Notes under the pieces: generated by a model
What the model saw: only the letters and a program-made list of their open reading frames with translations
What the model was told of the DNA's origin: nothing
Databases searched by the model: none
Assembly: GCA_030603565.1 (NCBI GenBank)
Contig: JAUVXM010000003.1
Span: 1,359 to 65,358, forward strand
Origin: Candidatus Aminicenantes bacterium
GTDB taxonomy: Bacteria > Acidobacteriota > Aminicenantia > Aminicenantales > Aminicenantaceae
Reading direction: 5' to 3'
DNA: 64,000 nt
In this document: positions 1,787 through 15,404 of the stretch, piece by piece
Position numbering within the stretch: position 1 is the first letter of the stretch
Layout: each line of letters starts with the position of its first letter
Position numbers and translations under genes: made by a program

Positions 1787-1945
1787 CGTTTTATACAGGC
1801 CAATTCTATGAAACTCTCTATTTCCTGCTGACTTCTTGTTGACAGTATATGTTTGCTCTGTGTATCATTGTAAATAAAGCAGCTCAATGGGCTGATGTTA
1901 ACCACATTTGAGGGTTTTTCAGATGAAATTCTTTGAGACGAACTT

Positions 1946-3140
1946 ATGGAAAAAGAAGCCAAAGCAAGGATAAGAATCAATGGCCTCCTTCAGCGTGCAG
2001 GGTGGCGGTTTTTTGATAATGAAAACGGCCCGGCAAATATTGCCCTGGAAATAAATGCCAAAATAAAGAAGAAAGTTCTTGACCAGTTTGGTGATGATTT
2101 TGAAAAAACCGTTGACGGATTTGTTGATTATCTCTTGCTTGACAGTAAAGGCTTCCCCTGTGCGGTACTTGAAGCAAAATCCGAAAAATTAGACCCATTG
2201 GTTGGCAAAGAACAAGCCCGCAAGTACGCTAAATCGTTAAATGTTCGCTTTATAATTCTTTCCAATGGAAACCTCCATTATTTTTGGGACTTAGAGCATG
2301 GTAATCCATCCATTATAACCGACTTTCCTTTTTTCTCCCACCGATTTCATACAGATCAAGGGCCGCGGCACACGGAGATATACCTTTCAATATAAAACCA
2401 AAGAGGGCAGCCGCATAGAGGAGTACAGGGACGAAAAGGGAACCTTCAAACTCTTCGATTTCTTTGCCACCTGCGAATATTTTGAGGAGAAATTCAATTA
2501 CGACGAAGTGCTGGAACTGCCACCAACTCAAGCGGGCACAGGTGATGGCAGCGGCATCAGCATTGATGAATTCGAGAGCATCAAACCGGACCCCTTATCG
2601 TCTTATATAGAGTCTCGAGTAGGCTATCATGGAATGAAGATCGACAGGAAATTTTACGATCAATTCGAGGAAACCGTCAAAAAAGATGATACGGTTCGCG
2701 AGCACTATGAGCGCGGTAATATCAAAGCAGCCGAGGAATACATCAGGGACAACCTCTTTGATAAACCTGAAGAATTCTTCAATTTGGAGAAACTGCGAAA
2801 GTCGGTCCAGCTCGATCGCCGGCTCTGGTTGTGGGAGATTATTGAAAAGGCATTTGGAGGCATTGACCGGTTTAAGTCCAAAGATGAACTGCTTGACGAG
2901 GAATTAGATAAATTTGTATCCATTCACAGGCCTGATGCTTCTCATATTTCCCGGATCAGGGATTTTTTCAAAGCTTATATTACGGACAGTGAAATCCGTG
3001 ACATTATAGAGAATAAACAATACAATCGCCTTGCCACCAATCCCAAGGTAACTATTGCCGATCTTAAGGACCTTGAAGAGTGGCGGAATATAATACCTGA
3101 ATATGTAAAGGACTATGTTTCTCTAAACACATTTTTGTAA
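1946..3140 (+). pseudogene. hsdR: Type I restriction enzyme R subunit (hsdR) remnant: HSDR_N nuclease domain joined by an internal deletion and frameshift to helicase motif VI plus C-terminal domain; motor core missing
   Basis: ORF 1946..2395 is an HSDR_N / PD-(D/E)xK domain (VDYLLLDSKGFPCAVLEAKSEK). The frame switches near 2320 to ...DFIQIKGRGTRR (SF2 motif VI, QxxGRxxR) with no DEAD-box or motifs I-V before it. The 2508..3140 ORF resembles an R-subunit C-terminal region. About 600 aa of ATPase core are absent. Confidence 0.7.
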
Positions 3141-3180
3141 AATATAGAAAATATCTGTATGTGATAAATGAGGATAACTG

Positions 3181-3755
3181 ATGGATAAAAAAGGTGTTAT
3201 GATTCCTGTTGAGAGAATTAAGCAGTTGATTGTGTTCATCCGCGGTCAGAAAGTTATGTTGGATCGGGATCTTGCAGAACTTTATGGCATAGAAACAAAG
3301 GTTTTGAAGCAAGCAGTACGGAGAAACATAAAACGTTTCCCTGACGATTTTATGTTTGAGTTAACGAAAGAAGAATTTGAAAATTGGAGGTCACAATTTG
3401 TGACCTCCAATAGGGACAAGATGGGTTTAAGATATAAACCTATGGCTTTCACCGAGCAAGGTGTAGCCATTCTTTCAAGCGTTTTGAGAAGTGAGAGGGC
3501 AATAGAAGTCAACATTGCCATAATGCTGCCTTCGTGCAACTCCGCGAAATGCTGGCTTCTAACGTGGAGCTTGCCAGTAAGCTGAAACAAATGGAAAAGA
3601 AATATGATGAACAGTTTAAGATCGTCTTTGAAGCTATTCGCCAACTTATGACGCCGCCAGAGAAGCCACGCAAGAAGATTGGGTTTGTGGTAAAGGAAAA
3701 GCAAGCTGCCTATGGCCGTCGAGGCATAAAACGCAAAAAGGCTGACCATGCTTGA
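3181..3755 (+). pseudogene. ORF6N-domain DNA-binding protein disrupted by a 1-nt frameshift near 3520
   Basis: N-terminal part [53 protein letters not shown] is the ORF6N signature. The reading ...AIM breaks, and the +1 frame continues (R)[35 protein letters not shown] (ORF 3534..3755). One missing base near gccataatgc-tgcc restores a single ORF. Confidence 0.65.
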
Positions 3756-6285
3756 TAACGGAACAAAAAAGCGGATAGATTCCGCGCGTGACATCCTTGT
3801 GGGTAAGGTTCCCGACCCAAAATCACAGGTAGAACAGATAACCATCGCCATGATCTACAAGTTCATGGACGACATGGACAATCAAACCGAAGAACTCGGA
3901 GGCAAGGCCACCTTTTTTGCGGGCGAATTCAAACAATACGCCTGGAGCCGCCTGCTGGACCGCAAATTCAGCGGTCACCAACGTCTTCTCCTTTATGCTG
4001 AGGGCATAGAGAAGATGAATATAAACGAAAACATCCCCCAGCTTTTCAGGGATATTTTTAAAGGAACGTTTCTTCCTTACAGGGACCCGGAAACACTAAA
4101 TCTCTTTCTGAAGGAGATAAACGGCTTTGCCTATGACCACAGCGAACGCCTGGGGGATGCTTTTGAGTATTTGCTTTCCGTTCTGAGCAGTCAGGGCGAT
4201 GCGGGGCAGTTTCGCACCCCACGTTATATCATTGATTTCATAGTTGAAATTGTAAATCCAGCCAAAGAGGACACTGTTCTTGATCCTGCATGCGGCACTG
4301 CCGGATTCCTGATCTCATCATACAAACACATCCTTCGCCAAAACACCAACCTGTCTACGTGCGGGCACGCACAGGCAGGAGACCACCCCGGCGACCTCCT
4401 GACCACCGATGATAAAGGCAGGCTTATGACCAATTTCTGCGGCTATGATATCTCCCCTGACATGGTGCGTCTGTCCCTGGTCAACATGTATCTGCACAGT
4501 TTTGCCAATCCATCAATTTATGAATACGATACACTTACCAGTGAAGACCGCTGGGACGAGCGTTATGATGTGATCATGGCCAATCCGCCATTTATGTCGC
4601 CCAAAGGGGGCATCCGGCCCCATTCCCGTTTCAGCATAAAGGCCAAACGGAGCGAAGTTCTTTTTGTGGACTACATCGCCGAACACCTCAATGTTCACGG
4701 CAGGGCCGGCGTCATTGTTCCTGAAGGGATCATCTTCCAGTCCCAGAATGCCTATAAGAATCTGCGCAGAATGTTGATTGATGAAGGCTACTTGTATGCG
4801 GTTATCTCCCTGCCTGCCGGGGTCTTTCAGCCATATTCGGGCGTAAAAACCAGCATCTTGATCATGGATAAAACCCTGGCAAAGAAGACCACTGAAATTC
4901 TTTTCGTAAAAATAGCAAACGACGGCTTTGACCTCGGAGCACAGCGTCGCCCCATTGAAAAGAACGACCTGCCCCAGGCCCTTGAGGTTGTCAAGGGCTG
5001 GAAGCAGGCAATCGGCGAAGGTAAAGGCTTTGAGTTTAACGAGGACGACAAGACAATCGCGCATACTGTCAGAAAAGAGAAAATTGCCGAGTCTGGCGAT
5101 TACAACCTCTCCGGGGACAGGTATAAAGAGGTTATGAGTTACGCCAATGTCAAGTGGCCGATGGTGGAGTTGGGGGATAAAAGCCTCTTTCAAATTGAAT
5201 CAGGCGGCACTCCAAGTTCCAACAAATCAGAATATTGGGATGGCGATATTAGATGGATAACATTGGTTGATTTACCCAAAGAAAATTTTATAACTTATAT
5301 TTCTGATACCAAAAGAAAGATTACAGAATTGGGATTAAGCAATTCATCTGCAAAGCTTCTGCCCAATAAAACTGTTTTGGTGTCGTCTCGTGCTACTATA
5401 GGCAGAATTGCTATTTCCCAAACAGAACTTGCGACAAATCAGGGATTCAAGAATGTAATCATTAAAGATTTCAGCAAGGTTAATGAAAAATATTTAGCGT
5501 GCATGCTTATGCGATTAGTTCCACAGATGGAGCAAATGGGAACTGGTGGCACATACAAAGAGATATCAAGAGCAAGCTTTTCAACTCTACGTATCCCCCT
5601 CCCACCCCTGGAAGTTCAGGAGAAGATTGTCGCGGAACTGGACGGTTATCAGGAAATCATTGATGGCGCAAAACAGATTGTCGAAAACTACAAACCCACA
5701 ATCAAAATCGACCCCGACTGGCCGTTGGTGGGGTTGGGGGAGGTGTGTGATATTAAGTCAGGCGGAACACCAAAAAAAGATGTTGATGACTATTGGGAAA
5801 ATGGTGAAATTCCTTGGCTTGGCTCTGGAGTCTGCAAAGATAATATTGTTTCTGAAAGTTCAGATTTTATAACTGAAACTGGTTTTAATAACTCCTCAGC
5901 TAAGAAATTGACCCCAAAAACTACATTAATCGCATTAGTTGGTGCTACGATAGGAAAAACAGCATTTCTTACTTTTGAAGCAACTACAAACCAAAATATT
6001 GCAGGCCTATATCCATTGAATACCAATGAATTACTTCCCGAGTTTCTATTTTATATTTCGCAAAGCCTATATTCAGAATTTATTAGTTTGGGGTCTGGAA
6101 AATTTAGAATGGCAAATCTAAGTTTCATAAGGGGATTGAAAATTCCCCTCCCACCCCTAAAAACTCAGGAAAAAATCGTTGCTGAAATCGAATCTGAGCG
6201 TGAGCTTGTGGAGGCGAATAAGAGGTTGATCGAGATTTTTGAGAAAAAGATAAAGGACAAAATCGGTGAAATCTGGGGGCAATAA
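3748..6285 (+). CDS. Fused type I RM methyltransferase-specificity protein (HsdM gamma-class N6-adenine methyltransferase domain plus HsdS with two target-recognition domains) in one 845-aa polypeptide
   Basis: [11 protein letters not shown] (motif X), [12 protein letters not shown] (motif I), IMANPPF (motif IV NPPF). From about aa 470 there are two target-recognition domains, each ending in the HsdS conserved repeat [17 protein letters not shown] / [17 protein letters not shown]. Start ATG overlaps the upstream ORF6N stop (ATGCTTGA). Confidence 0.85.
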
Positions 6286-6297
6286 TAAGGAGCATTC

Positions 6298-6660
6298 ATG
6301 AGTGAAAATGGAGTTATTCCAGGTGATCAGATTAAAAGCATTATCTTCCTGATACGCGGTCAAAAGGTCATGTTAAGCCCTCACCTGGCGGAGCTGTATA
6401 ATATTGAACCGCGCGTTCTGGTTCAGGCAGTAAAGCGAAATATCGAGAGATTCCCAGAGGATTTCATGTTTCAGTTGACAGACGATGAGTTTTTAAACTT
6501 GAAATCACAAATTGTGATTTCAAGTTGGGGTGGCTCTCGCAGGGCAAAACCCTATGCCTTCACTGAACAGGGTGTTGCGATGCTTCCATTGGGTTTTATA
6601 GTAAAGGAAAAGAAGGCTGCCTATGGCAAAAAAGAGGGCAGAGGAAAAGAAAAACCATGA
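6298..6660 (+). CDS. ORF6N-domain protein, shortened paralogue (central coiled-coil segment deleted)
   Basis: [57 protein letters not shown] then directly [16 protein letters not shown]. Same N- and C-terminal blocks as 3181..3755 but about 50 aa shorter. Overlaps the radC start. Confidence 0.55.
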
Positions 6661-7319
6661 AAACCATTAAAGACATGCCCGAACACAGCCGGCCCCGTGA
6701 GAAGCTGCGGGAAAAAGGCGCGTCTGCTCTGACCGACAAGGAACTGGTAGCCGCCATCCTTGGCCGTGGCATTGAAGGCGTGGATATTGTTACAATGTCC
6801 AGGAACGTCGCACGGCTGATACGAAAACATAAAGAGAACCTTTCTGTTGAGCATCTTACGTCTGTGCCGGGGATGGGGCTTGCCAAGGCCGCTCAGATAC
6901 TCTCGGCCTTTGAATTGGCAAGGAGATACCTGCTCAAAGAGACCGTAAAAATCACCAGCGCCAAGGATATCTTGCCCTTGGTTGCCGACATTGCCGATAA
7001 AAAACAAGAATATTTTGTGTGCATATCCTTAAACGGAGCCAACGAGCTCATTGAAAAGCGTATTGTCACCATCGGCCTTGTGAACAGCAGCCAGATTCAT
7101 CCGCGTGAAGTCTTTGCCGATGTCATCGCAGACCGTGCCGCTTCCGTCATCTTTGCCCATAACCATCCATCCGGCGACCCAAAACCAAGCGAAAGCGACG
7201 CAAAAACCCACAGGCAGCTTACAGAAGCCGGAAATATCCTCGGCCTTCGGATTCTCGATCACATAATAGTAACTAAAAAAGGATACTTCAGCTTCCAGGA
7301 AGCCGGATTGATTAGTTAA
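6657..7319 (+). CDS. radC: RadC-like JAB-domain protein
   Basis: N-terminal helix-hairpin-helix region ([10 protein letters not shown]..), JAB metal motif [27 protein letters not shown]. Confidence 0.85.
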
Positions 7320-7476
7320 CGGAAAAAACAAAAGAACAATACAAGGACAAACTCAAACTTCTGAAAAAGGGCCTCCTACAGGATTTGTTAACCAGCAAAA
7401 TGGAGTTTAGGATTTAAGAGACACTAAGCTTGCTTATAGGGGAAAAAAAGGTTAAAATTATACTAACATAACTGAT

Positions 7477-8115
7477 ATGGCATATCCAATTCCAACTCCA
7501 ATTTATCACCTTACTCACATCGATAACTTGACCTCTATTATTCAGTCAGGAGGCTGCTTATCTTTTAACCAGATGCAAAATCAGGGGATTGGTCACATTG
7601 ATATTGCATACGAAACCATTCAAGCCCGCCGTGTACAAACATCAGTTCCATACGGTCCTGGAGGATGTTTACACGACTACGTGCCCTTTTTTTTTGCTCC
7701 ACGTCCCCCAATGCTCTATGCGATCCACGGAGGGAATGTGGAAGGATATGAACAAGGGCAGATCCCTCTCATTTATCTGGTTACAACAGCTCAAACTGTC
7801 AGCAATAGCAGCAGTGAATGGGTTTTTACAGATGGACATGCAACTATGGCATTTTCCGGATTTTTTGACGATCTAAATGACCTTGATGAGATCGACTGGG
7901 AGGTTATGGAGTCGCGATACTGGAATGATACGCCAACTCTGCCCGACAGAAAGCGCAGACGACAAGCAGAGTTTTTAATTAAAGATTGTTGTCCCTGGGA
8001 ATTGTTTTCAGAAATCGGGGTCATAAACTCACGAATGGGATCAAGGGCGGAAAATATTCTCGAAAAAAACAGACATCAACCAATTGTTCAGATACACGGG
8101 AACTGGTATTATTAG
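7477..8115 (+). CDS. darT: DarT ssDNA thymidine ADP-ribosyltransferase toxin (DUF4433)
   Basis: IYHLTHIDNLTSIIQSGGCLS at the N-terminus and RKRRRQAEFLIKDCCPWELFSEIGV at the C-terminus (catalytic Glu in the AEFL motif). Size 212 aa. Immediately followed by a macrodomain gene. Confidence 0.8.
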   Translation: MAYPIPTPIYHLTHIDNLTSIIQSGGCLSFNQMQNQGIGHIDIAYETIQARRVQTSVPYGPGGCLHDYVPFFFAPRPPMLYAIHGGNVEGYEQGQIPLIYLVTTAQTVSNSSSEWVFTDGHATMAFSGFFDDLNDLDEIDWEVMESRYWNDTPTLPDRKRRRQAEFLIKDCCPWELFSEIGVINSRMGSRAENILEKNRHQPIVQIHGNWYY

Positions 8116-8127
8116 AAGGAGGGAATC

Positions 8128-9195
8128 ATGATTAAGCTTACGCAAGGCAACGTTATCGAAGCCGATGTGGAAGCCCTTGTCAATACCGTAAATTGTGTGG
8201 GTATTATGGGCAAGGGTATCGCTCTCCAGTTTAAGCAGGCATTCAGGGATAACTTCCAGGCATACACAAATGCTTGTAGAAAGGAAGAAGTCAAGCCGGG
8301 GCTCATGTTCATCTTCCCTACTCATAGAATGATCAATCCTAAATACATCATTAATTTCCCAACAAAGCGGCACTGGAAGGAAAAATCTAAGCTCGAATAC
8401 ATTGAGCAAGGACTAAACAGTTTGGTCAAGGAAGTCCGCCGGTTAAGAATCAAGGCTATTGCCATACCTCCTTTGGGTTGTGGCTACGGTGGGTTGAAAT
8501 GGCCAGTGGTCCGTAATCTAATCGAAACCTCATTCGATCAATTGCCCGATGTCCAGGTGCTCCTTTTCGAACCTGGAAGAACACCCGAGGCTGAATCAAT
8601 GCCTATAGATTTCACAAAACCATCATTAACGCGTGCCAGGGCTCTTCTCATTAAGCTCCTTGAGCAGTATGCCATACCAGGTTACCGGTTGAGCCTGCTG
8701 GAAATCCAGAAGCTTGCATATTTCCTTCAGGTTGCGGGTGAACCTCTTCGTTTGGAGTATGTCAAACAGAAGTATGGACCTTATGCTGAAAATCTTAATT
8801 TCGTGCTGCAACTATTGGAAGGGCATTACATTCGGGGATATGGGGACCGCAGTGTCAGGGCATCTATCCGCCTTCTCAATAGTGCCGGTGAGGAGGCCAG
8901 TAGGTTTTTGGCAGATAATCAAGAAGCCTTCCAACGCCTCGAGAGAGTGGGGCAACTAATTGAGGGTTTTGAAACGCCCTATGGTATGGAGCTCTTATCA
9001 TCCGTGCATTGGGTTGCAGTGGCCGATGACAAACCAGCTCAAACCGTGGATCAGGCCGTGAATCAGATTTTTGCCTGGAATGCCCACAAAAAAAAGACTT
9101 TCAAAGCCAGTCATGTCCACAAGGCATGGCAGCGTCTTGTTGAGCAAAGCTGGTTGCCAATTTTTTCATCGACCCTTTCTAATCCTTCGCATTGA
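8128..9195 (+). CDS. darG: DarG antitoxin: N-terminal TARG1-like macrodomain (ADP-ribosyl-DNA hydrolase) plus C-terminal DarT-binding domain
   Basis: EADVEALVNTVNCVGIMGKGIALQFKQAF macrodomain signature. 355 aa. RBS AGGAGGG 6 nt upstream; 12 nt downstream of darT. Confidence 0.75.
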   Translation: MIKLTQGNVIEADVEALVNTVNCVGIMGKGIALQFKQAFRDNFQAYTNACRKEEVKPGLMFIFPTHRMINPKYIINFPTKRHWKEKSKLEYIEQGLNSLVKEVRRLRIKAIAIPPLGCGYGGLKWPVVRNLIETSFDQLPDVQVLLFEPGRTPEAESMPIDFTKPSLTRARALLIKLLEQYAIPGYRLSLLEIQKLAYFLQVAGEPLRLEYVKQKYGPYAENLNFVLQLLEGHYIRGYGDRSVRASIRLLNSAGEEASRFLADNQEAFQRLERVGQLIEGFETPYGMELLSSVHWVAVADDKPAQTVDQAVNQIFAWNAHKKKTFKASHVHKAWQRLVEQSWLPIFSSTLSNPSH

Positions 9196-9225: not shown

Positions 9226-10485
9226 TTAATGGGGGTGTGATTTAAGGTGCGGGAGGCAAGAGATGCCAAAGGGCATGACCAGGACTTTGGCATCTTTACC
9301 CTGAGCCTTAAGCGCTTCTGAGAGGGCTTTTTGGGGGGAGTCAAAACACCGGAAAAATAAATTCTTTGTTACCTCCTGCGGGAGGTCAGAGACTAAGTAA
9401 ATCCTATACTCAAGCTGTATCTTTGCCATCTGGGAGGCGATGTGGCGGCCCTGGATAAATTTATGTTTTAATTCATCCACCAGTTCATCAAGCGAAAGAT
9501 TCTCTGACAGAGCGCGGGACAAATTTTCCTCACCAATACCTTCTTTACAGCAGGCAACAGTCAGGATTATCCCGCCTTTTTTGACTGCAGGTAAAGCATT
9601 CTGCATAGCTTTGTGTGCCTGGTAGAGATTTATATCTTTAGGAAAACCTCCGGGAGAAGTAATGACAACATCAGCCGGTTCGTTAATCTGCAGCCTGAAT
9701 ATCCGGTCGATATATTCTACTCCTGCCCGGTGCGCAGCAGTCACATTACCAGCCACCACTTTTATTATCTCCTTTTGGGGATTTAATACTGCATTGACCA
9801 TAAAATCCACCCCAACCATAGCAGCTATCTCTTCCAGCTCTTCCCGCAGGGGATTGCCTTTAAGCACACCGGCTTTAGCACCTGGATGAAGAAACAGGCT
9901 GTGATTGGATTCAATGGTAGTCCGGCTGCATACACCGGGAGCCAAAGCTTTGGCACCCCCACTGTATCCGGCAAAATAATGGAATTCAAGATTTCCGGTT
10001 GCTATGACAAAATCAGCCTCAAGGACTTTTCTAAACACTTCTGCTTTCGTCCCCCTGCTTGTGACTCCGACTTGCTCACAATCCTCTAGATCATGTTCAA
10101 TAGACTTGATCCTCTCATATATCTTTTTGCCTACAAGGTCTTTTTTTTCTTCCTCAGTCTGTTTTCTGTGTACTCCCAGGCCGAATACTATTTTTACCTG
10201 ATTGTCATCTATGCCGGCAGTTTTTATCTCTTCTAAAATAGGAGGCAGTAAAACCTTCGAAGGAGCAGGCCGGGTAATATCGCTGACAAGAATCACAATC
10301 CGGTCATCAGGGGAAACAAGCTCTTTAAGCCGCTTGCTCTTAACAGGTTCAGCCAGGGCCCGCCTTACTTCAGCAGCCGGGTCGTCAACGCCGGCTTTAT
10401 CCTCAGGTTTTATCATCCCCAGGAAATTGGAGTTAGGAATATCAAGAGAGACTATTTTTTTTCCGTAATGTAAATCGATTTTCAT
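9226..10485 (-). CDS. LarA-family nickel-pincer-cofactor-dependent racemase/epimerase (lactate racemase-like, DUF2088)
   Basis: 419 aa; VILVSDITRP.., GLGVHR, HYFAGYSGGAKALAPG...ESNHS blocks typical of LarA homologues. Confidence 0.7.
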   Translation of the reverse strand: MKIDLHYGKKIVSLDIPNSNFLGMIKPEDKAGVDDPAAEVRRALAEPVKSKRLKELVSPDDRIVILVSDITRPAPSKVLLPPILEEIKTAGIDDNQVKIVFGLGVHRKQTEEEKKDLVGKKIYERIKSIEHDLEDCEQVGVTSRGTKAEVFRKVLEADFVIATGNLEFHYFAGYSGGAKALAPGVCSRTTIESNHSLFLHPGAKAGVLKGNPLREELEEIAAMVGVDFMVNAVLNPQKEIIKVVAGNVTAAHRAGVEYIDRIFRLQINEPADVVITSPGGFPKDINLYQAHKAMQNALPAVKKGGIILTVACCKEGIGEENLSRALSENLSLDELVDELKHKFIQGRHIASQMAKIQLEYRIYLVSDLPQEVTKNLFFRCFDSPQKALSEALKAQGKDAKVLVMPFGISCLPHLKSHPH

Positions 10486-10500
10486 CTATTTTTCCGACCC

Positions 10501-10535
10501 GTGAATAATTCAAGTCCGCCTGAACTATTCATAAA
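10501..10535. repeat. Solo TIR palindrome of the MITE family (right end and left end abutting)
   Basis: gtgaataattcaag tccg cctgaactattcataaaaa; lies between vapC and larA. Confidence 0.5.
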
Positions 10536-10924
10536 AATTGAAGTTTTAGCCTAATATTTTTATTGATCAGTTTAAAATGTGAATCTGCTGTAACTATAGT
10601 CAAATCATAATAAATAGCATGTGCAGCAATAATTAAATCTGTTAAAGGAATTGTATAACCTTTTTTTCTTAATCTGAATCCAATCTGGGATGTCTGTGCA
10701 AATATATTTTTATCAGTTTTTAGATGTTTAAAACCTTCAAAATTATTTTTGAGAAAGGAGAATTCTTTTTTATTAACTGCCCCAATAAGAAGCTCACTCA
10801 AAATAATACCATTATAATAGATTTTGTCTTCTTCAATTAAAGGCAGAAGAAAATCATTAACTGCTTTGTTCTTGCCTTTAAAAAAATCAATCCAAATTGT
10901 ACTGTCAATAATAAATTTACTCAT
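10529..10924 (-). CDS. vapC: PIN-domain toxin VapC
   Basis: 131 aa; IIDSTIWIDFF (N-terminal acidic residue), TIVTADSHF. Overlaps the upstream antitoxin by 8 nt. Confidence 0.75.
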   Translation of the reverse strand: MSKFIIDSTIWIDFFKGKNKAVNDFLLPLIEEDKIYYNGIILSELLIGAVNKKEFSFLKNNFEGFKHLKTDKNIFAQTSQIGFRLRKKGYTIPLTDLIIAAHAIYYDLTIVTADSHFKLINKNIRLKLQFL

Positions 10925-11132
10925 TCAATTCTTCTTCCCTTAATTTCAAAATATCTACTTTCAAATCCAATTTCCCACATGACTCTTTGATTTTTTCACG
11001 TTTTAATTTCCTGACAAAATCAGAAAGGGCTAGTTCAATAATCTTTGTCTTGTTTGCGATACCTGACAGCTTTAGTGATTCTGAGATTAAATCATCATTT
11101 ATATTAAGTGTAGTTCTCATCTGCACCTCCAA
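10917..11132 (-). CDS. vapB: VapB-type antitoxin
   Basis: 71 aa; MRTTLNINDDLISESLKL...IIELAL. Translationally coupled to vapC. Confidence 0.6.
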   Translation of the reverse strand: MEVQMRTTLNINDDLISESLKLSGIANKTKIIELALSDFVRKLKREKIKESCGKLDLKVDILKLREEELNE

Positions 11133-11232
11133 TGCATATAATAGATACAGATAACAAAACTGTCAAGCAATAAAACATACCTCTAAGCATTCGATGCGGT
11201 TATAATGGTGAAGGAAGAGTTTCTGCTTTACT

Positions 11233-12441
11233 TTGACATCTGAACTTTCATATGATATTACGGCTCATATGGAATCTATTTCTGCCAAGCGCCTCCCCTA
11301 TTCAAAAATCCGGGTGATGTTTGATGCTGCTAAAAAACTGGAAAAACAGGGCAGAGATATCATCCATCTAGAGATCGGCCGGCCTGACTTTAACACACCC
11401 CAGCACATCGTAGAAGCAGCTATCGAGGCTTTAAAGGCAGGAAAGCACCACTACTCGGCCAATGCCGGCATAATCGAACTGCGGGAAGCAGTAGCTGAAA
11501 AATACGCATCTGAATATAAACTGAATTTCTCTCCAGAGTCTGAGATCGTGATCACAAACGGAGTGGCAGAAGGAGTCTTCCTGGTAATAAATGCCCTGCT
11601 TGATCCGGGAGACCAGGTTCTAATCCCTAATCCACGCTGGGTCAATTACGAACCGGATGCCTACACAAACTTTGTTGAACCAATAAGTTATACTCTGTTT
11701 GAGGAAAAAAACTTCCAGCCTGATCCTGAGGAGGTGGAGGAAAAAATCACCCCCCGGACAAAAATGTTGATTTTAGCCAGCCCCTCCAATCCTACCGGGG
11801 GGGTCACAAGTAAAAAAATTCTTGAACAGATTGCTGCGTTGGCTGAAAAACATAACCTCATAGTAGTAAGCGACGAGATCTACGAAAAGATCATCTATCC
11901 TCCCGCTGAACACATCTGTGCTGCATCCTTAGAGGGTATGCAAGAACGAACAATAGTGCTGAACGGATTCTCTAAATTTTACTCGATGACAGGCTGGCGG
12001 TTGGGATATGCTGTGGGCCCGCAAAAATTAATTGACCCGCTATTACGTTACCACCAATACATGATAACCTCGACCAACACTTTTGCCCAATGGGGTGCGG
12101 TGACAGCGCTTAAAGGAGACCAGAATCCGTCTCTTATAATGCGGGACAAATTCCAAAAACGGCGGGATTTTATCCACACTGCGGTCAATGAAATTCCCGG
12201 GTTTTGCTCTACCCTGCCGGCCGGAGCTTTTTATCTCTTCCCCTCTGTCAAAGAAACGGGGCAAAAAGGAATTCAGGTCGCAGAGATGTTACTTGAAAAA
12301 GCCGGAGTAGCAACAGTCGCTGGTGAGTATTTCGGTATAAAAGGAGCCGGGCACATCCGGATATCCTATGCCAATTCTATGGAAAACCTTAAAACTGCGG
12401 TTAAGAAAATTAAAGCTGTTATGATAAGCAGTGAACAGTAA
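11233..12441 (+). CDS. Class I/II PLP-dependent aminotransferase (aspartate/aromatic aminotransferase family)
   Basis: GFSKFYSMTGWRLGY (PLP lysine), NPTGG, PNPRW. True start may be the internal ATG at about 11269. Confidence 0.85.
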   Translation: MTSELSYDITAHMESISAKRLPYSKIRVMFDAAKKLEKQGRDIIHLEIGRPDFNTPQHIVEAAIEALKAGKHHYSANAGIIELREAVAEKYASEYKLNFSPESEIVITNGVAEGVFLVINALLDPGDQVLIPNPRWVNYEPDAYTNFVEPISYTLFEEKNFQPDPEEVEEKITPRTKMLILASPSNPTGGVTSKKILEQIAALAEKHNLIVVSDEIYEKIIYPPAEHICAASLEGMQERTIVLNGFSKFYSMTGWRLGYAVGPQKLIDPLLRYHQYMITSTNTFAQWGAVTALKGDQNPSLIMRDKFQKRRDFIHTAVNEIPGFCSTLPAGAFYLFPSVKETGQKGIQVAEMLLEKAGVATVAGEYFGIKGAGHIRISYANSMENLKTAVKKIKAVMISSEQ

Positions 12442-12614
12442 ATGGTAAATAGTAAATGGTAAATAAAACCAGGAGAAGCAGGGCTATAAAAGCTAATCGT
12501 CATTCCGGTGAGTTTAAGCATCGTCATTCCGGCGGAAGCCGGAAACCAGGATAAATAGTAAATGGTAAATAGATAATGGTTACCCTAAAAAATTCATAAA
12601 TCGCGGAGGTATTG

Positions 12615-15404
12615 ATGCAAAAAAATAATACTATATCTTTAAGATTTTCAGCTCTGCTGCTTTTATTTATTTTATTGATAACATCTCCTCTTCCGGCCCA
12701 GAACCGAATCACAAGCCCCAAAGAACATTTCGGACACAACATCGGTGCTGACTATTTTCTGGCCACTTATACTCAGATGACAGAGTACTGGAAAAAACTC
12801 GCTTCAGAGTCCGACCGGATGATCCTTGAGGATATTGGCATAACTGAAGAAGGCCGAACCATAGTCATGGCTATTATTACTTCACCTGACAATCATAAAA
12901 ACCTTGACGGTTATCAAAAAATATCAAAAAAAATGGCTCTGGCAGAAGGGATCAAAGATAGCGAGGCCCGAACATTAGCCGCAGAAGGCAAAGCCGTAGT
13001 CTGGATCGATGGCGGCCTGCATGCTACCGAAGTCGTAGGTGCCCAGCAGGAAATCGAACTGGTCTATCAGATGGTCAGCCGCAATGACACCGAAACCCTG
13101 CGCATCCTTGACAATGTCATCCTTCTGGCAACAATCACCAATCCGGATGGCATGGACCTTGTCAGTAAATGGTATATGCGGGAATCCGACCCTGCTAAAC
13201 GCTCTTACAGGGGACTTCCCCGCTTGTATCAAAAATACATCGGGCACGACAATAACCGCGACTTCTATATGGTAACCCAAAAAGAATCTGAAGCTGTCTG
13301 CAGGGTCCTGTACAAGCAGTGGTTTCCCCAGATCATATACAACCACCATCAGAGCGGCCCCTCAGGGTGTGTGCTTTTTGCCCCGCCTTTCCGGGAACCA
13401 CACAGCTATAATTTCGACCCCCTCTTAATTCTGGGAGTCACGACCGTAGGTAATGCCATGCACAGCCGCTTTGCTGCAGAGGGGAAACCCGGTGCTGCTA
13501 TGCGGGATATCGCCGGTTACCAGACCTGGTGGAATGGGTGTCTGCGCTGTACTCCCTATTTCCACAACATGATCGGCATCCTTACGGAGATGATCGGCAA
13601 TCCCACCCCCATGGAAATCCCATTTATCCCTGACAGACATCTGCCAAGCGGAGATTACCCATTTCCTATCGCTCCCCAAAAATGGCACTTCCGCCAATCC
13701 ATAGAATACTCTATGACAGCAGACCGGGCCATTCTTGATCTGGCTGCCAAGTTACGGGAAAATTTCCTTTTCAATATTTACCGCATGGGGAAAAATTCAA
13801 TCGAATACGGAAGCAGCGATCACTGGACTATAGACCCAAGCCGCATCAAAGCGGTTGAGGAAGCCATAAACAAAAACAAGCCCACAATGACAGGCTCTGG
13901 CCGCTCCCAGGGATACCCTCCCGAATACTATCACAAGGTCCTCCACAACCCGGAAGCCCGTGACCCCAGGGGATATATCCTGCCATCTGACCAGGATGAT
14001 TTCCTGACTGCAGGAAAATTCGTAAACACTCTAATCAAGAATGGAATTACAGTATTACAAGCAACCGCTTCTTTTAAAACCGGAGACAAAACCTATCCGC
14101 AGGGCTCTTACATAATTAAAACCGCCCAGGCTTTTCGGCCCCACATCCTGGATATGTTGGAACCTCAATATTACCCGGATAAACCATCCTCATCCGGAGT
14201 AACTCCCAGACCTCCCTATGACAGCGCAGGCTACACCCTGGCCTTTCAGATGGGAGTAGAATTTGACCGTATCCTGGAAGGATTCGACGGCCCTTTCGAA
14301 AAAATCGAAGGGCTTGTCCAACCTTCTCCCGGCAGAATATACGGCATAGGAAAAGCCGGTTTTTTGCTGTCCCACAAAACAAATGATTCCTTTATTGCTG
14401 TAAACCGTCTGCTTAAAAGCGGAGAAAAAGTGTTCTGGCTTCAGAACCCCCTTAAAATAAGCAACAGGTTATTTTCCGCAGGCGCCATATATATCCCGGC
14501 CGCCGCCTCTACAGCAGCAAAGGTCCGTGAACTAGCTGCTGAACTCGGGTTGAATTTTTTTGCCATGGATAAAAAGCCAACCGGGACTGCTTTAGCTTTA
14601 AAGCCGACCAGGATCGGATTGTGGGACCGCTACGGTGGCTCTATGTCCTCCGGCTGGGTACGCTGGATCCTGGAAAAATTCGACTTCAACTTCGAAGTAG
14701 TCTTCCCTCAGACACTCGATGCGGGTAACCTTAAAGAGCAATTCGATGTCCTCATCTTTGTGGGCGGCGCCATTCCCTCAAAAGAAGGTTCTTCCTCCCA
14801 GCGCTCCTGGAGACGTTCCAGCCCTGACCCTGAAACCATACCGGCTGAATTCAGGCAAATGCTGGGTTCTGTCACCGCAGAAAAGACAATCCCCCAACTG
14901 CGCAAATTCCTCAGGCAAGGAGGCACTGTCCTTACTCTCGGAAGTTCCAACAATCTCGCATCCCACCTCGAACTCCCGCTCGTTGACCCTCTTACCGAAA
15001 AAAATGCTGATGGAAAATCAACTCCCCTGCCGTCAGATAAATTTCTCATTCCCGGTTCAATACTTCAGGTACGAGTTAATAATAACCATCCGCTGGCCTA
15101 CGGCATGCCGGAAAAGGCAGATGTCTATTTTAACCGAAGCCCTGTATTTGACCTGCTGCCGGAAGCATCATTTGAAAAAATCAGCCCGGTTGCTTGGTTT
15201 GATACCGACACCCCCCTGCGCAGCGGTTTAGGCAGAGGGCAGCACTATCTCAAAGGCACTACTGCAGTCATCGCAGCTGAAGTAGGAAAAGGCAAACTTT
15301 TTTTACTCGGCCCGGAAATCACCTTCCGCGCCCAACCGCACGGAAATTTTAAGTTTCTGTTTAATGGAATATATTACGGAGGAGCGAAATTAACAGAATT
15401 TTAA
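12615..15404 (+). CDS. Secreted M14-family zinc carboxypeptidase with large C-terminal extension
   Basis: Signal peptide; HATEVVG, TNPDGMD, NHHQSG motifs. GGAGG RBS upstream of ATG 12615. Confidence 0.8.
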   Translation: MQKNNTISLRFSALLLLFILLITSPLPAQNRITSPKEHFGHNIGADYFLATYTQMTEYWKKLASESDRMILEDIGITEEGRTIVMAIITSPDNHKNLDGYQKISKKMALAEGIKDSEARTLAAEGKAVVWIDGGLHATEVVGAQQEIELVYQMVSRNDTETLRILDNVILLATITNPDGMDLVSKWYMRESDPAKRSYRGLPRLYQKYIGHDNNRDFYMVTQKESEAVCRVLYKQWFPQIIYNHHQSGPSGCVLFAPPFREPHSYNFDPLLILGVTTVGNAMHSRFAAEGKPGAAMRDIAGYQTWWNGCLRCTPYFHNMIGILTEMIGNPTPMEIPFIPDRHLPSGDYPFPIAPQKWHFRQSIEYSMTADRAILDLAAKLRENFLFNIYRMGKNSIEYGSSDHWTIDPSRIKAVEEAINKNKPTMTGSGRSQGYPPEYYHKVLHNPEARDPRGYILPSDQDDFLTAGKFVNTLIKNGITVLQATASFKTGDKTYPQGSYIIKTAQAFRPHILDMLEPQYYPDKPSSSGVTPRPPYDSAGYTLAFQMGVEFDRILEGFDGPFEKIEGLVQPSPGRIYGIGKAGFLLSHKTNDSFIAVNRLLKSGEKVFWLQNPLKISNRLFSAGAIYIPAAASTAAKVRELAAELGLNFFAMDKKPTGTALALKPTRIGLWDRYGGSMSSGWVRWILEKFDFNFEVVFPQTLDAGNLKEQFDVLIFVGGAIPSKEGSSSQRSWRRSSPDPETIPAEFRQMLGSVTAEKTIPQLRKFLRQGGTVLTLGSSNNLASHLELPLVDPLTEKNADGKSTPLPSDKFLIPGSILQVRVNNNHPLAYGMPEKADVYFNRSPVFDLLPEASFEKISPVAWFDTDTPLRSGLGRGQHYLKGTTAVIAAEVGKGKLFLLGPEITFRAQPHGNFKFLFNGIYYGGAKLTEF

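Follow-up and report, generated by a model that had tools for sequence, protein, structure and literature searches.

Positions 1946–9195 of a 64,000-nucleotide stretch of DNA from a Candidatus Aminicenantes bacterium (contig JAUVXM010000003.1; the whole stretch is called the window below) hold a compact group of defence genes. The region is very probably a defence island of the chromosome whose backbone is a type I-like restriction-modification (R-M) operon of two genes, hsdR followed by a fused hsdM-hsdS gene (hsdM~S), with radC as the 3' gene, the DarT/DarG pair as terminal cargo, ORF6N genes in both intergenic slots, and a recent loss of the restriction subunit (R). The island genes have been assigned with Pfam, PADLOC, NCBIfam, and PDB. 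All eight elements that an earlier sequence-only reading had placed in the island have been recovered, at or near where it put them and all on the + strand, by the open reading frame (ORF) list and the profile searches. The island lies between a sulfatase-like gene (- strand, ending at ~1545) and larA (9226–10485, - strand).

The loss of restriction is seen in hsdR, of which two pieces remain. The N-terminal remnant (1946–2328, + strand) encodes the PD-(D/E)xK nuclease domain, residues 1 to ~128; beyond it, the ORF continues in the wrong frame until it meets a stop at 2395. This fragment (1946–2395) matches HSDR_N (3.8e-7) and HSDR_N_2 (1.3e-6), both above the Pfam cut-offs, as well as REase_I of PADLOC, and the remnant has 96% amino acid identity to residues 1–128 of the 838-residue HsdR of an orthologous locus, L088. 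The C-terminal remnant (2331–3140, + strand) lies in a different frame and extends from helicase motif VI to the C-terminus, residues ~567–838. Its frame begins at 2319/2331 and not at 2508, the upstream translation opens with motif VI, 'FSPTDFIQIKGRGTRR', and tblastn matches it to residues 567–838 of the L088 protein at 88%. At the DNA level, window positions 1830–2328 align with L088 7347–7845 (94%), and 2331–3143 with L088 9164–9982 (88.6%). The missing segment is therefore L088 7846–9163, ~1318 bp encoding residues ~129–566, which is the whole motor domain; the loss starts directly behind the nuclease domain and ends shortly ahead of motif VI, and the junction at 2328/2331 is out of frame. 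A second relative, L001, gives the same picture, with window positions 1930–2328 and 2329–3896 aligning to its positions 9351–9749 and 11067–12667. The type I arrangement of a nuclease, a superfamily 2 motor, and a C-terminal assembly domain is absent from the window and present in L088, where the motor is matched by DEAD, ResIII, and SWI2_SNF2. No further hsdR has been found within the 64 kb of the window. Lacking its motor, and with its two parts in different frames, this HsdR copy can neither translocate with ATP nor cleave DNA, in agreement with the earlier description of the restriction arm as dead.

The deletion could in principle be an artefact, in which case the lost hsdR segment and the frameshift in the first ORF6N gene (described below) would be assembly or sequencing errors, and the real genome would carry a complete, active R-M system like that of L088. 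The source, a 77.8-kb NCBI contig, is known from one assembly only, single-base indels are common errors, and L001, the closest hsdR relative, also carries a 1-nt frameshift. On the other hand, a 1318-bp loss is atypical as an error, both hsdR halves align cleanly on either side of the junction, and independent hsdR remnants with other junctions exist in public data. Moreover, microhomology at the junction is limited to a few bases and a long repeat is absent, so that a collapse during assembly is unlikely. Based on these observations, an artefact is considered very unlikely. The frameshift in the L001 gene (9367–11884) is located at the Walker A motif ('FLFE|LATGTGKT'); L001 is among the closest hsdR relatives, with ~85% and ~76% DNA identity to the two window fragments.

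A functional role of the motor-less remnant, either as a free nuclease or through the C-terminal assembly domain as a regulator or partner of HsdM~S, is extremely improbable. Its C-terminal 272 codons contain no internal stop, the ratio of nonsynonymous to synonymous substitution rates (dN/dS) of this part against L088 is 0.14, and in-frame proteins of 341–375 amino acids that join N- and C-terminal parts exist elsewhere (P0028, P0110, and P0117). However, the halves are out of frame in the window, and neither an evident start codon nor a ribosome-binding site precedes the C-terminal part. The low dN/dS of the fragments (0.12–0.14) is equally expected from a recent deletion, with which it fits. 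The junctions of the three in-frame proteins also differ, and two of them lie in loci without hsdM~S. A conserved family of motor-less HsdR proteins has been considered and rejected on these same grounds, even though the three proteins cover 99% of the chimeric N+C query with which they were retrieved. Such a query selects for motor-deleted proteins, so the frequency of remnants is not given by it. Different internal motor-domain deletions have also been observed in the hsdR relatives P0010, P0017, P0028, P0108, P0110, and P0117 (loci L253 and L254 among them), and in P0017 the deletion sits exactly between two 'FSPTDF' motifs of the protein. With their different junctions, and with hsdM~S gone in two of the loci, these other public remnants look like ordinary decay.

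The comparison with relatives that the sequence-only reading had proposed has yielded an orthologous locus with intact hsdR. It is found in contigs from four JGI samples (L088–L091) and has the flanks of the window, with the sulfatase on one side and LarA, a PIN/VapB pair, an aminotransferase, and an M14 peptidase on the other. Its gene order, with protein lengths in brackets, is hsdR (838), hsdM~S (815), ORF6N (106), radC (220), darT (212), and darG (355). The window differs from L088 in the hsdR deletion, in an extra 592-bp segment with the first ORF6N gene, and in both target recognition domains (TRDs) of HsdM~S (~5172–5595 and 5738–6140), which cannot be aligned.

Divergence from L088 varies strongly along the island. 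Synonymous divergence (dS) is 0.25 for larA and 0.21 for the aminotransferase gene in the flanks. Within the island, it is 0.14 for the N-terminal and 0.44 for the C-terminal part of hsdR, 0.71 for the M domain, 0.14 for the second ORF6N gene, 0.63 for radC, and 0.03 for darT and darG, and dN/dS is low throughout (0.06–0.29). Sliding identity reaches 97–100% across darTG (7340–9140), against 85–93% in the flanks, which suggests that the darTG segment has recently been exchanged or swept. From the mosaic of dS values and the replaced TRDs, it follows that the island is a recombining mosaic. We infer that the loss of R is recent and lineage-specific, in a locus that exchanges segments by recombination.

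The sequence-only reading had further supposed that the island may be in transition from classical restriction to an orphan methyltransferase with abortive-infection-type defence. The data hold no such direction. In L088–L091, DarTG stands beside an intact hsdR, and therefore DarTG predates the loss of R and no directed transition is indicated. As a speculative mechanism, import of an hsdM~S allele with new TRDs, in the divergent segment 2331–6140, could have turned an active R into a lethal burden and thereby favoured its loss; alternatively, R was lost by neutral decay. Together, the orthologue and the window represent the states before and after the deletion, with intact and deleted hsdR and different TRDs at the same site, and this natural pair could serve to ask whether specificity swaps drive the loss of restriction.

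The methylation arm is carried by hsdM~S (3748–6285, + strand), which encodes a fused type I N6-adenine methyltransferase and two-TRD specificity protein of 845 amino acids. The M domain extends from 3748 to ~5170 and is followed by TRD1 (~5172–5595), a central conserved region (5596–5737), and TRD2 (~5738–6140); the conserved repeats of the hsdS part are located at 5593–5642 and 6142–6191. The HsdM part matches N6_Mtase (2.5e-54) and MTase_I of PADLOC (3.7e-95), and the gamma-class N6-adenine methyltransferase motifs I (D179–L188, with DPACGTAGF) and IV (NPPF, N279–F282) occupy invariant columns. The HsdS part shows two Methylase_S stretches (residues 468–642 and ~654–828; 5.2e-54), as expected for two TRDs. 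The protein is covered to 100% in comparison with homologues of 810–870 amino acids. The separate M and S subunits of the classical R2M2S1 enzyme are replaced by this single ORF. Judged from its families, HsdM~S probably still methylates a bipartite adenine motif, and since both TRDs differ, this motif should differ from that of the orthologue.

The fusion had been noted in the earlier reading and is indeed present, but it is no peculiarity of this locus. N6_Mtase and Methylase_S occur together in 120 of the 120 listed HsdM~S relatives, nearly all of which cover the full query with ~790–880 amino acids, and single-TRD forms also exist (P0134, 652 amino acids). The scan of GTDB species genomes has returned at least 589 confirmed hits of the hsdR + hsdM~S family, in many phyla. 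From these hits, 80 GTDB loci have been fetched (L008–L087), in addition to the loci L002–L007, L088–L092, and L255–L257. In nearly all of the 80, the gene immediately 5' of hsdM~S, with the same orientation, is an hsdR of the 838-residue type. The gap between the two genes is measurable in ~72 loci; it is at most 45 nt in ~42 and a filled slot in ~30. The slots contain KilA-N (8), PDDEXK_3 (6), 23S_rRNA_IVP (4), and ORF6N (2) genes, plus TIR, Fic, RloB/AAA_21, and others. The HsdR family of the window is distantly EcoAI-like, with an NCBIfam score of 226 bits that is below the cut-off of 550. On this comparison, the fusion is the normal state of the family, and neither decay nor a special feature of the window.

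Fusions of this kind have been described as engineered enzymes. EcoKI HsdM-HsdS (PMC3510504) and the S. aureus CC398-1 constructs MSfus and M1/2Sfus (PMC6158711), with two TRDs or one, methylate and, together with a separate HsdR, restrict; they have been named 'Type IMS' (PMC3510504, PMC6158711). The window operon resembles them in having HsdM followed by HsdS in one polypeptide and a separate HsdR. It differs in that the Type IMS enzymes were built in the laboratory from type IA and staphylococcal systems, whereas the window carries a member of a natural, very widespread family, and the HsdR partner of this member has been destroyed. A keyword search of the literature on a natural HsdM-HsdS fusion family has given nothing specific, which reflects the limit of the search and does not prove absence. 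In the hsdR + hsdM~S family, an architecture discussed so far as an engineered intermediate exists in nature and is abundant, and the family raises the questions of how a two-TRD fusion recruits a second methyltransferase subunit and what radC contributes.

The radC gene (6657–7319, + strand) encodes a helix-hairpin-helix (HhH)-type UPF0758_N domain and a RadC-like JAB domain. It matches the Pfam families RadC (PF04002; 1.7e-39, 135 bits) and UPF0758_N (PF20582; 66.6 bits) and the NCBIfam model NF000642 (PRK00024) with 199.4 bits against a cut-off of 180. The translation holds the H-x-H...S-x-x-D metal motif that is expected of the RadC family. The sequence-only reading had listed radC as one more member of the island. 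The gene is present, but it is not an independent element: among the systems whose HsdR proteins are closest (a clade with at least ~64% identity to the L002 protein), it recurs 3' of hsdM~S in the same orientation. It lies within 24–190 nt of hsdM~S in L002–L007, L010, L046, L088–L092, and L255, follows after 1–5 kb of inserted genes in L022, L039, L044, L045, and L071, and is also listed 3' of hsdM~S for L256. The genes found between hsdM~S and radC, or beyond radC, include SIR2-HerA, ABC-3C components, SLFN/AlbA_2, deaminases, TIR, and CBASS; DarTG takes this place in the window and in the loci most closely related to it. Taken together, the gene neighbourhoods indicate that radC is the clade-typical 3' gene of the hsdR/hsdM~S operon and that its surroundings are a cargo site. 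A keyword search for radC together with type I R-M systems has given nothing specific. RadC-like JAB domains encoded on mobile elements have been proposed to act in nucleic-acid processing rather than as ubiquitin-like peptidases (Iyer et al., PMC5512222). The window protein shares with them the HhH+JAB architecture and a conflict-related context, and it differs in being encoded by a stand-alone, conserved 3' gene of a host R-M operon.

These neighbourhoods bear on the view that the region is simply five independent defence items side by side, with radC and the ORF6N genes as stand-alone systems or housekeeping genes untied to the R-M operon. In its favour, the ORF6N genes match PDC-S05, a single-gene candidate of PADLOC, ORF6N is mostly solitary among unrelated genes in metagenome and viral loci, and RadC passes the general RadC-family equivalog model. 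However, radC keeps the position described above in many unrelated contexts and phyla, and of the 35 genes scanned in the hsdR/hsdM~S slot, 10 encode ORF6N or KilA-N, a related domain. In the window, the start of radC overlaps the stop of the second ORF6N gene, and this overlap suggests that the two genes are translated from the same transcript. A mere juxtaposition of unrelated items is therefore unlikely.

The cargo pair consists of darT (7477–8115, + strand), a predicted single-stranded DNA (ssDNA) ADP-ribosyltransferase toxin, and darG (8128–9195, + strand), a predicted antitoxin with a macrodomain ADP-ribosylglycohydrolase and a C-terminal DarT-binding domain. Both genes give significant matches to the expected profiles. 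DarT scores 8.6e-68 with PF14487 (228.5 bits, cut-off 22.5) and 263.9 bits with the NCBIfam model toxin_DarT (NF048013, equivalog cut-off 150). It matches the Thermus DarT structure 7OMV (6.3e-55) and keeps the equivalents of Arg51 and of Glu160, the latter being alanine in the crystallised mutant. DarG scores 1.7e-24 with Macro, 2e-132 with the PADLOC model DarG, and 456.9 bits over residues 2–337 with antitoxin_DarG (NF048014, cut-off 250). Its match to the macrodomain of Thermus DarG (5M31) has an E-value of 1.2e-52, the counterpart of Lys80 lies in 'FPTKRHW', and residues 187–336 match the C-terminal domain of M. tuberculosis DarG (7YK3_B, 6.6e-20). The DUF4099 domain that had been anticipated for DarG gives no Pfam match; the C-terminal domain is recognised by NCBIfam, PADLOC, and 7YK3_B. 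The two genes are co-oriented and 12 nt apart, with darT upstream, an arrangement that is identical in L088–L092. The pair thus shares the catalytic Arg and Glu of DarT and the Lys of DarG with the Thermus (7OMV, 5M31) and M. tuberculosis (7YK3, 5M3I) proteins and differs from these systems in its genomic context. Because DarG has a macrodomain, the pair can be grouped with the thymidine-modifying DarTG2 type, which is described in PMC12255303. By analogy with the family, DarT would ADP-ribosylate thymidines in ssDNA, and DarG would reverse this modification and sequester DarT. An infection that upsets the balance between them would stop replication, leading to abortive infection. In all, hsdM~S, radC, darT, and darG show no truncation, retain their catalytic motifs, and appear intact, as the sequence-only reading had held for the methylation arm and the toxin-antitoxin pair.

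The island is made of known kinds of system, a type I-like R-M system and DarTG, and their combination is also known. In enteropathogenic Escherichia coli (EPEC) E2348/69, the RRDM island contains RptR, type I HsdM/HsdS/HsdR, DarTG2, and an M48 peptidase, and it protects against phages (PMC12255303). Both islands join a macrodomain-type DarT/DarG pair to a type I R-M operon in one co-oriented unit, so that DarTG beside or inside type I R-M genes is already known from EPEC (PMC12255303). In the EPEC island, hsdS and hsdR are separate genes with DarTG between them, none of the three Hsd subunits is damaged, and RptR is the regulator. In the window, on the other hand, M and S are fused, hsdR is first and deleted, DarTG is terminal after radC, and neither an RptR nor an M48 gene is annotated in the island. 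More generally, R-M systems often lose R and keep M. The island in the form first described is thus an ordinary case, and the added interest lies in its family context and in a palindrome of the ORF6N genes.

Several points weigh against the proposed reading of the island. The activities of its genes are predicted from sequence, and the deletion and the 1-nt frameshift are read solely from a public assembly, probably a metagenome-assembled genome. The window covers 64 kb of the genome, and HsdM~S could be complemented in trans by an hsdR located outside it. The source of the second M subunit in a two-TRD M~S fusion is a problem that the engineered enzyme poses as well. PADLOC contains no radC model. 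Finally, the link between the TRD swap and the loss of R is an inference only.

The two ORF6N genes are both defective. ORF6N-1 (3181–3755, + strand; ORFs 3181–3585 and 3534–3755) is a KilA-N-like DNA-binding gene between hsdR and hsdM~S. It matches Pfam ORF6N (5e-36, 123.3 bits; cut-off 27.8) and PDC-S05 (1.6e-50). The frameshift that the sequence-only reading had seen in this gene has been traced, by comparison with the homologue in L001, to the loss of 1 nt near 3525 ('ATG-CTGCCTTC' vs 'ATGAGGGCCTTT' in L001), which splits the ORF6N domain from a C-terminal helical part. The 592-bp segment that holds the gene (3144–3735) has no counterpart in L088 or L092. ORF6N-2 (6298–6660, + strand), located between hsdM~S and radC, also matches Pfam ORF6N (2.8e-32, 111.3 bits; cut-off 27.8) and PDC-S05 (4.1e-37). 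It does lack ~65 residues through an in-frame deletion, as the earlier reading of a shortened gene implied, but this is not local decay of the window lineage. The 106-amino acid copy of L088 has the same junction ('...GVAMLPLG') with a different tail, and therefore the deletion is older than the split of the two lineages; the tail appears to be drifting. The core of ORF6N-2 (6341–6540) is 99–100% identical to L088. The gene is absent from L092 and L002, and a 46-amino acid remnant is found at the same place in L256. Intact relatives have 168–247 amino acids, and neither window gene has the full length of about 170–250. No clear target duplication has been found at the boundaries of the ORF6N insertions. 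A general association of ORF6N with R-M systems has been considered and rejected, since the R-M family of the window lies near ORF6N in just 5 of 80 loci from metagenomes and in none of 80 viral loci. The neighbours in these loci are heterogeneous and often housekeeping genes.

Each ORF6N gene of the window contains a perfect palindrome with a 1-nt centre, one in ORF6N-1 (3383–3411, 14-nt arms) and one at the same codon position in ORF6N-2 (6496–6526, 15-nt arms). The centre is the first base of the codon that follows the invariant Gln of [LW][RK]SQ[FI]VTS. In 105 distinct ORF6N segments from metagenomes, IMG/VR, and R-M loci, positions 2–13 from the centre are Watson-Crick paired in 74–98% of the segments, and in at least 83% at every position except position 8. 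Several pair types occur per position, such as AT 64, CG 20, and GC 16 at position 4, and TA 55 and GC 42 at position 11. The mean is 10.96 of 12 pairs, compared with 5.34 ± 0.16 when synonymous codons are resampled with each protein kept, and the next best centre anywhere in the gene reaches at most 5.5 pairs. Amino acid changes are correlated with pair changes (S..V, S..A, C..G, and F..G). Folding predictions give stable hairpins, with energies of ~-21 to -25.5 kcal/mol and z scores of -4.7 to -7.5. The palindrome, conserved and covarying, is also seen in L001, L006, L086, and L093–L252, perfect or near-perfect, at 27–33 bp with arms of up to 16 nt. Tandem diverged ORF6N genes, two or three per locus, have been observed in the metagenomic loci L097, L114, L116, L132, and L138, each gene with its own version of the palindrome.

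The palindrome is a strong and simple sign that selection acts on the structure or symmetry of the nucleic acid within coding sequence, in a poorly understood gene family that is listed as a phage-defence candidate. Its mismatches, 38 A·C and 15 G·T, are dominated by one synonymous third position, and they were examined as a G·U test for a sense-strand RNA hairpin. The mismatch types do not discriminate, and the symmetry fits a dimer operator as well as a hairpin. An operator in a promoter has been rejected, as the window holds no copy beyond the two intragenic ones. No Rfam family matches the palindrome, and none of the papers retrieved for 'ORF6N' concerns it, to judge by their titles and abstracts. 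Neutral correction of quasi-palindromes by template switching is a known mutational process and may offer an alternative origin. With slightly less than even confidence, we propose that the ORF6N genes are small self-contained cassettes with a functional intragenic palindrome and, separately, that the operon is a natural, very widespread 'Type IMS' system, one clade of which has in radC an accessory gene that has gone unrecognised. In such a cassette, the palindrome could be an operator for an ORF6N dimer inside its own gene, or it could form a hairpin, in RNA or ssDNA, that serves in processing, attenuation, or mobility. If this is true, the palindrome would let an ORF6N gene settle in arbitrary junctions, including both slots of the operon.

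Around the island, a sigma-70-like promoter candidate is located at 1839–1868 (+ strand; TTGACA-18-TATCAT, 11/12) and is the best match upstream of hsdR. It falls in 1830–1945, a stretch conserved with L088, and it is a consensus match only; sites of this kind are no more numerous in the region than expected by chance. The tRNA and Rfam scans have found no tRNA gene or Rfam family in the island, and no integrase-like ORF is seen in 1946–9195 in the ORF list or with Pfam. The borders show neither a tRNA gene nor an island-flanking direct repeat, so these features lend no support to mobility of the island as a whole. Just past larA, a PIN-domain (VapC-like) and VapB-like gene pair (10529–11132, - strand), which is kept in L088, forms a second toxin-antitoxin module adjoining the island.

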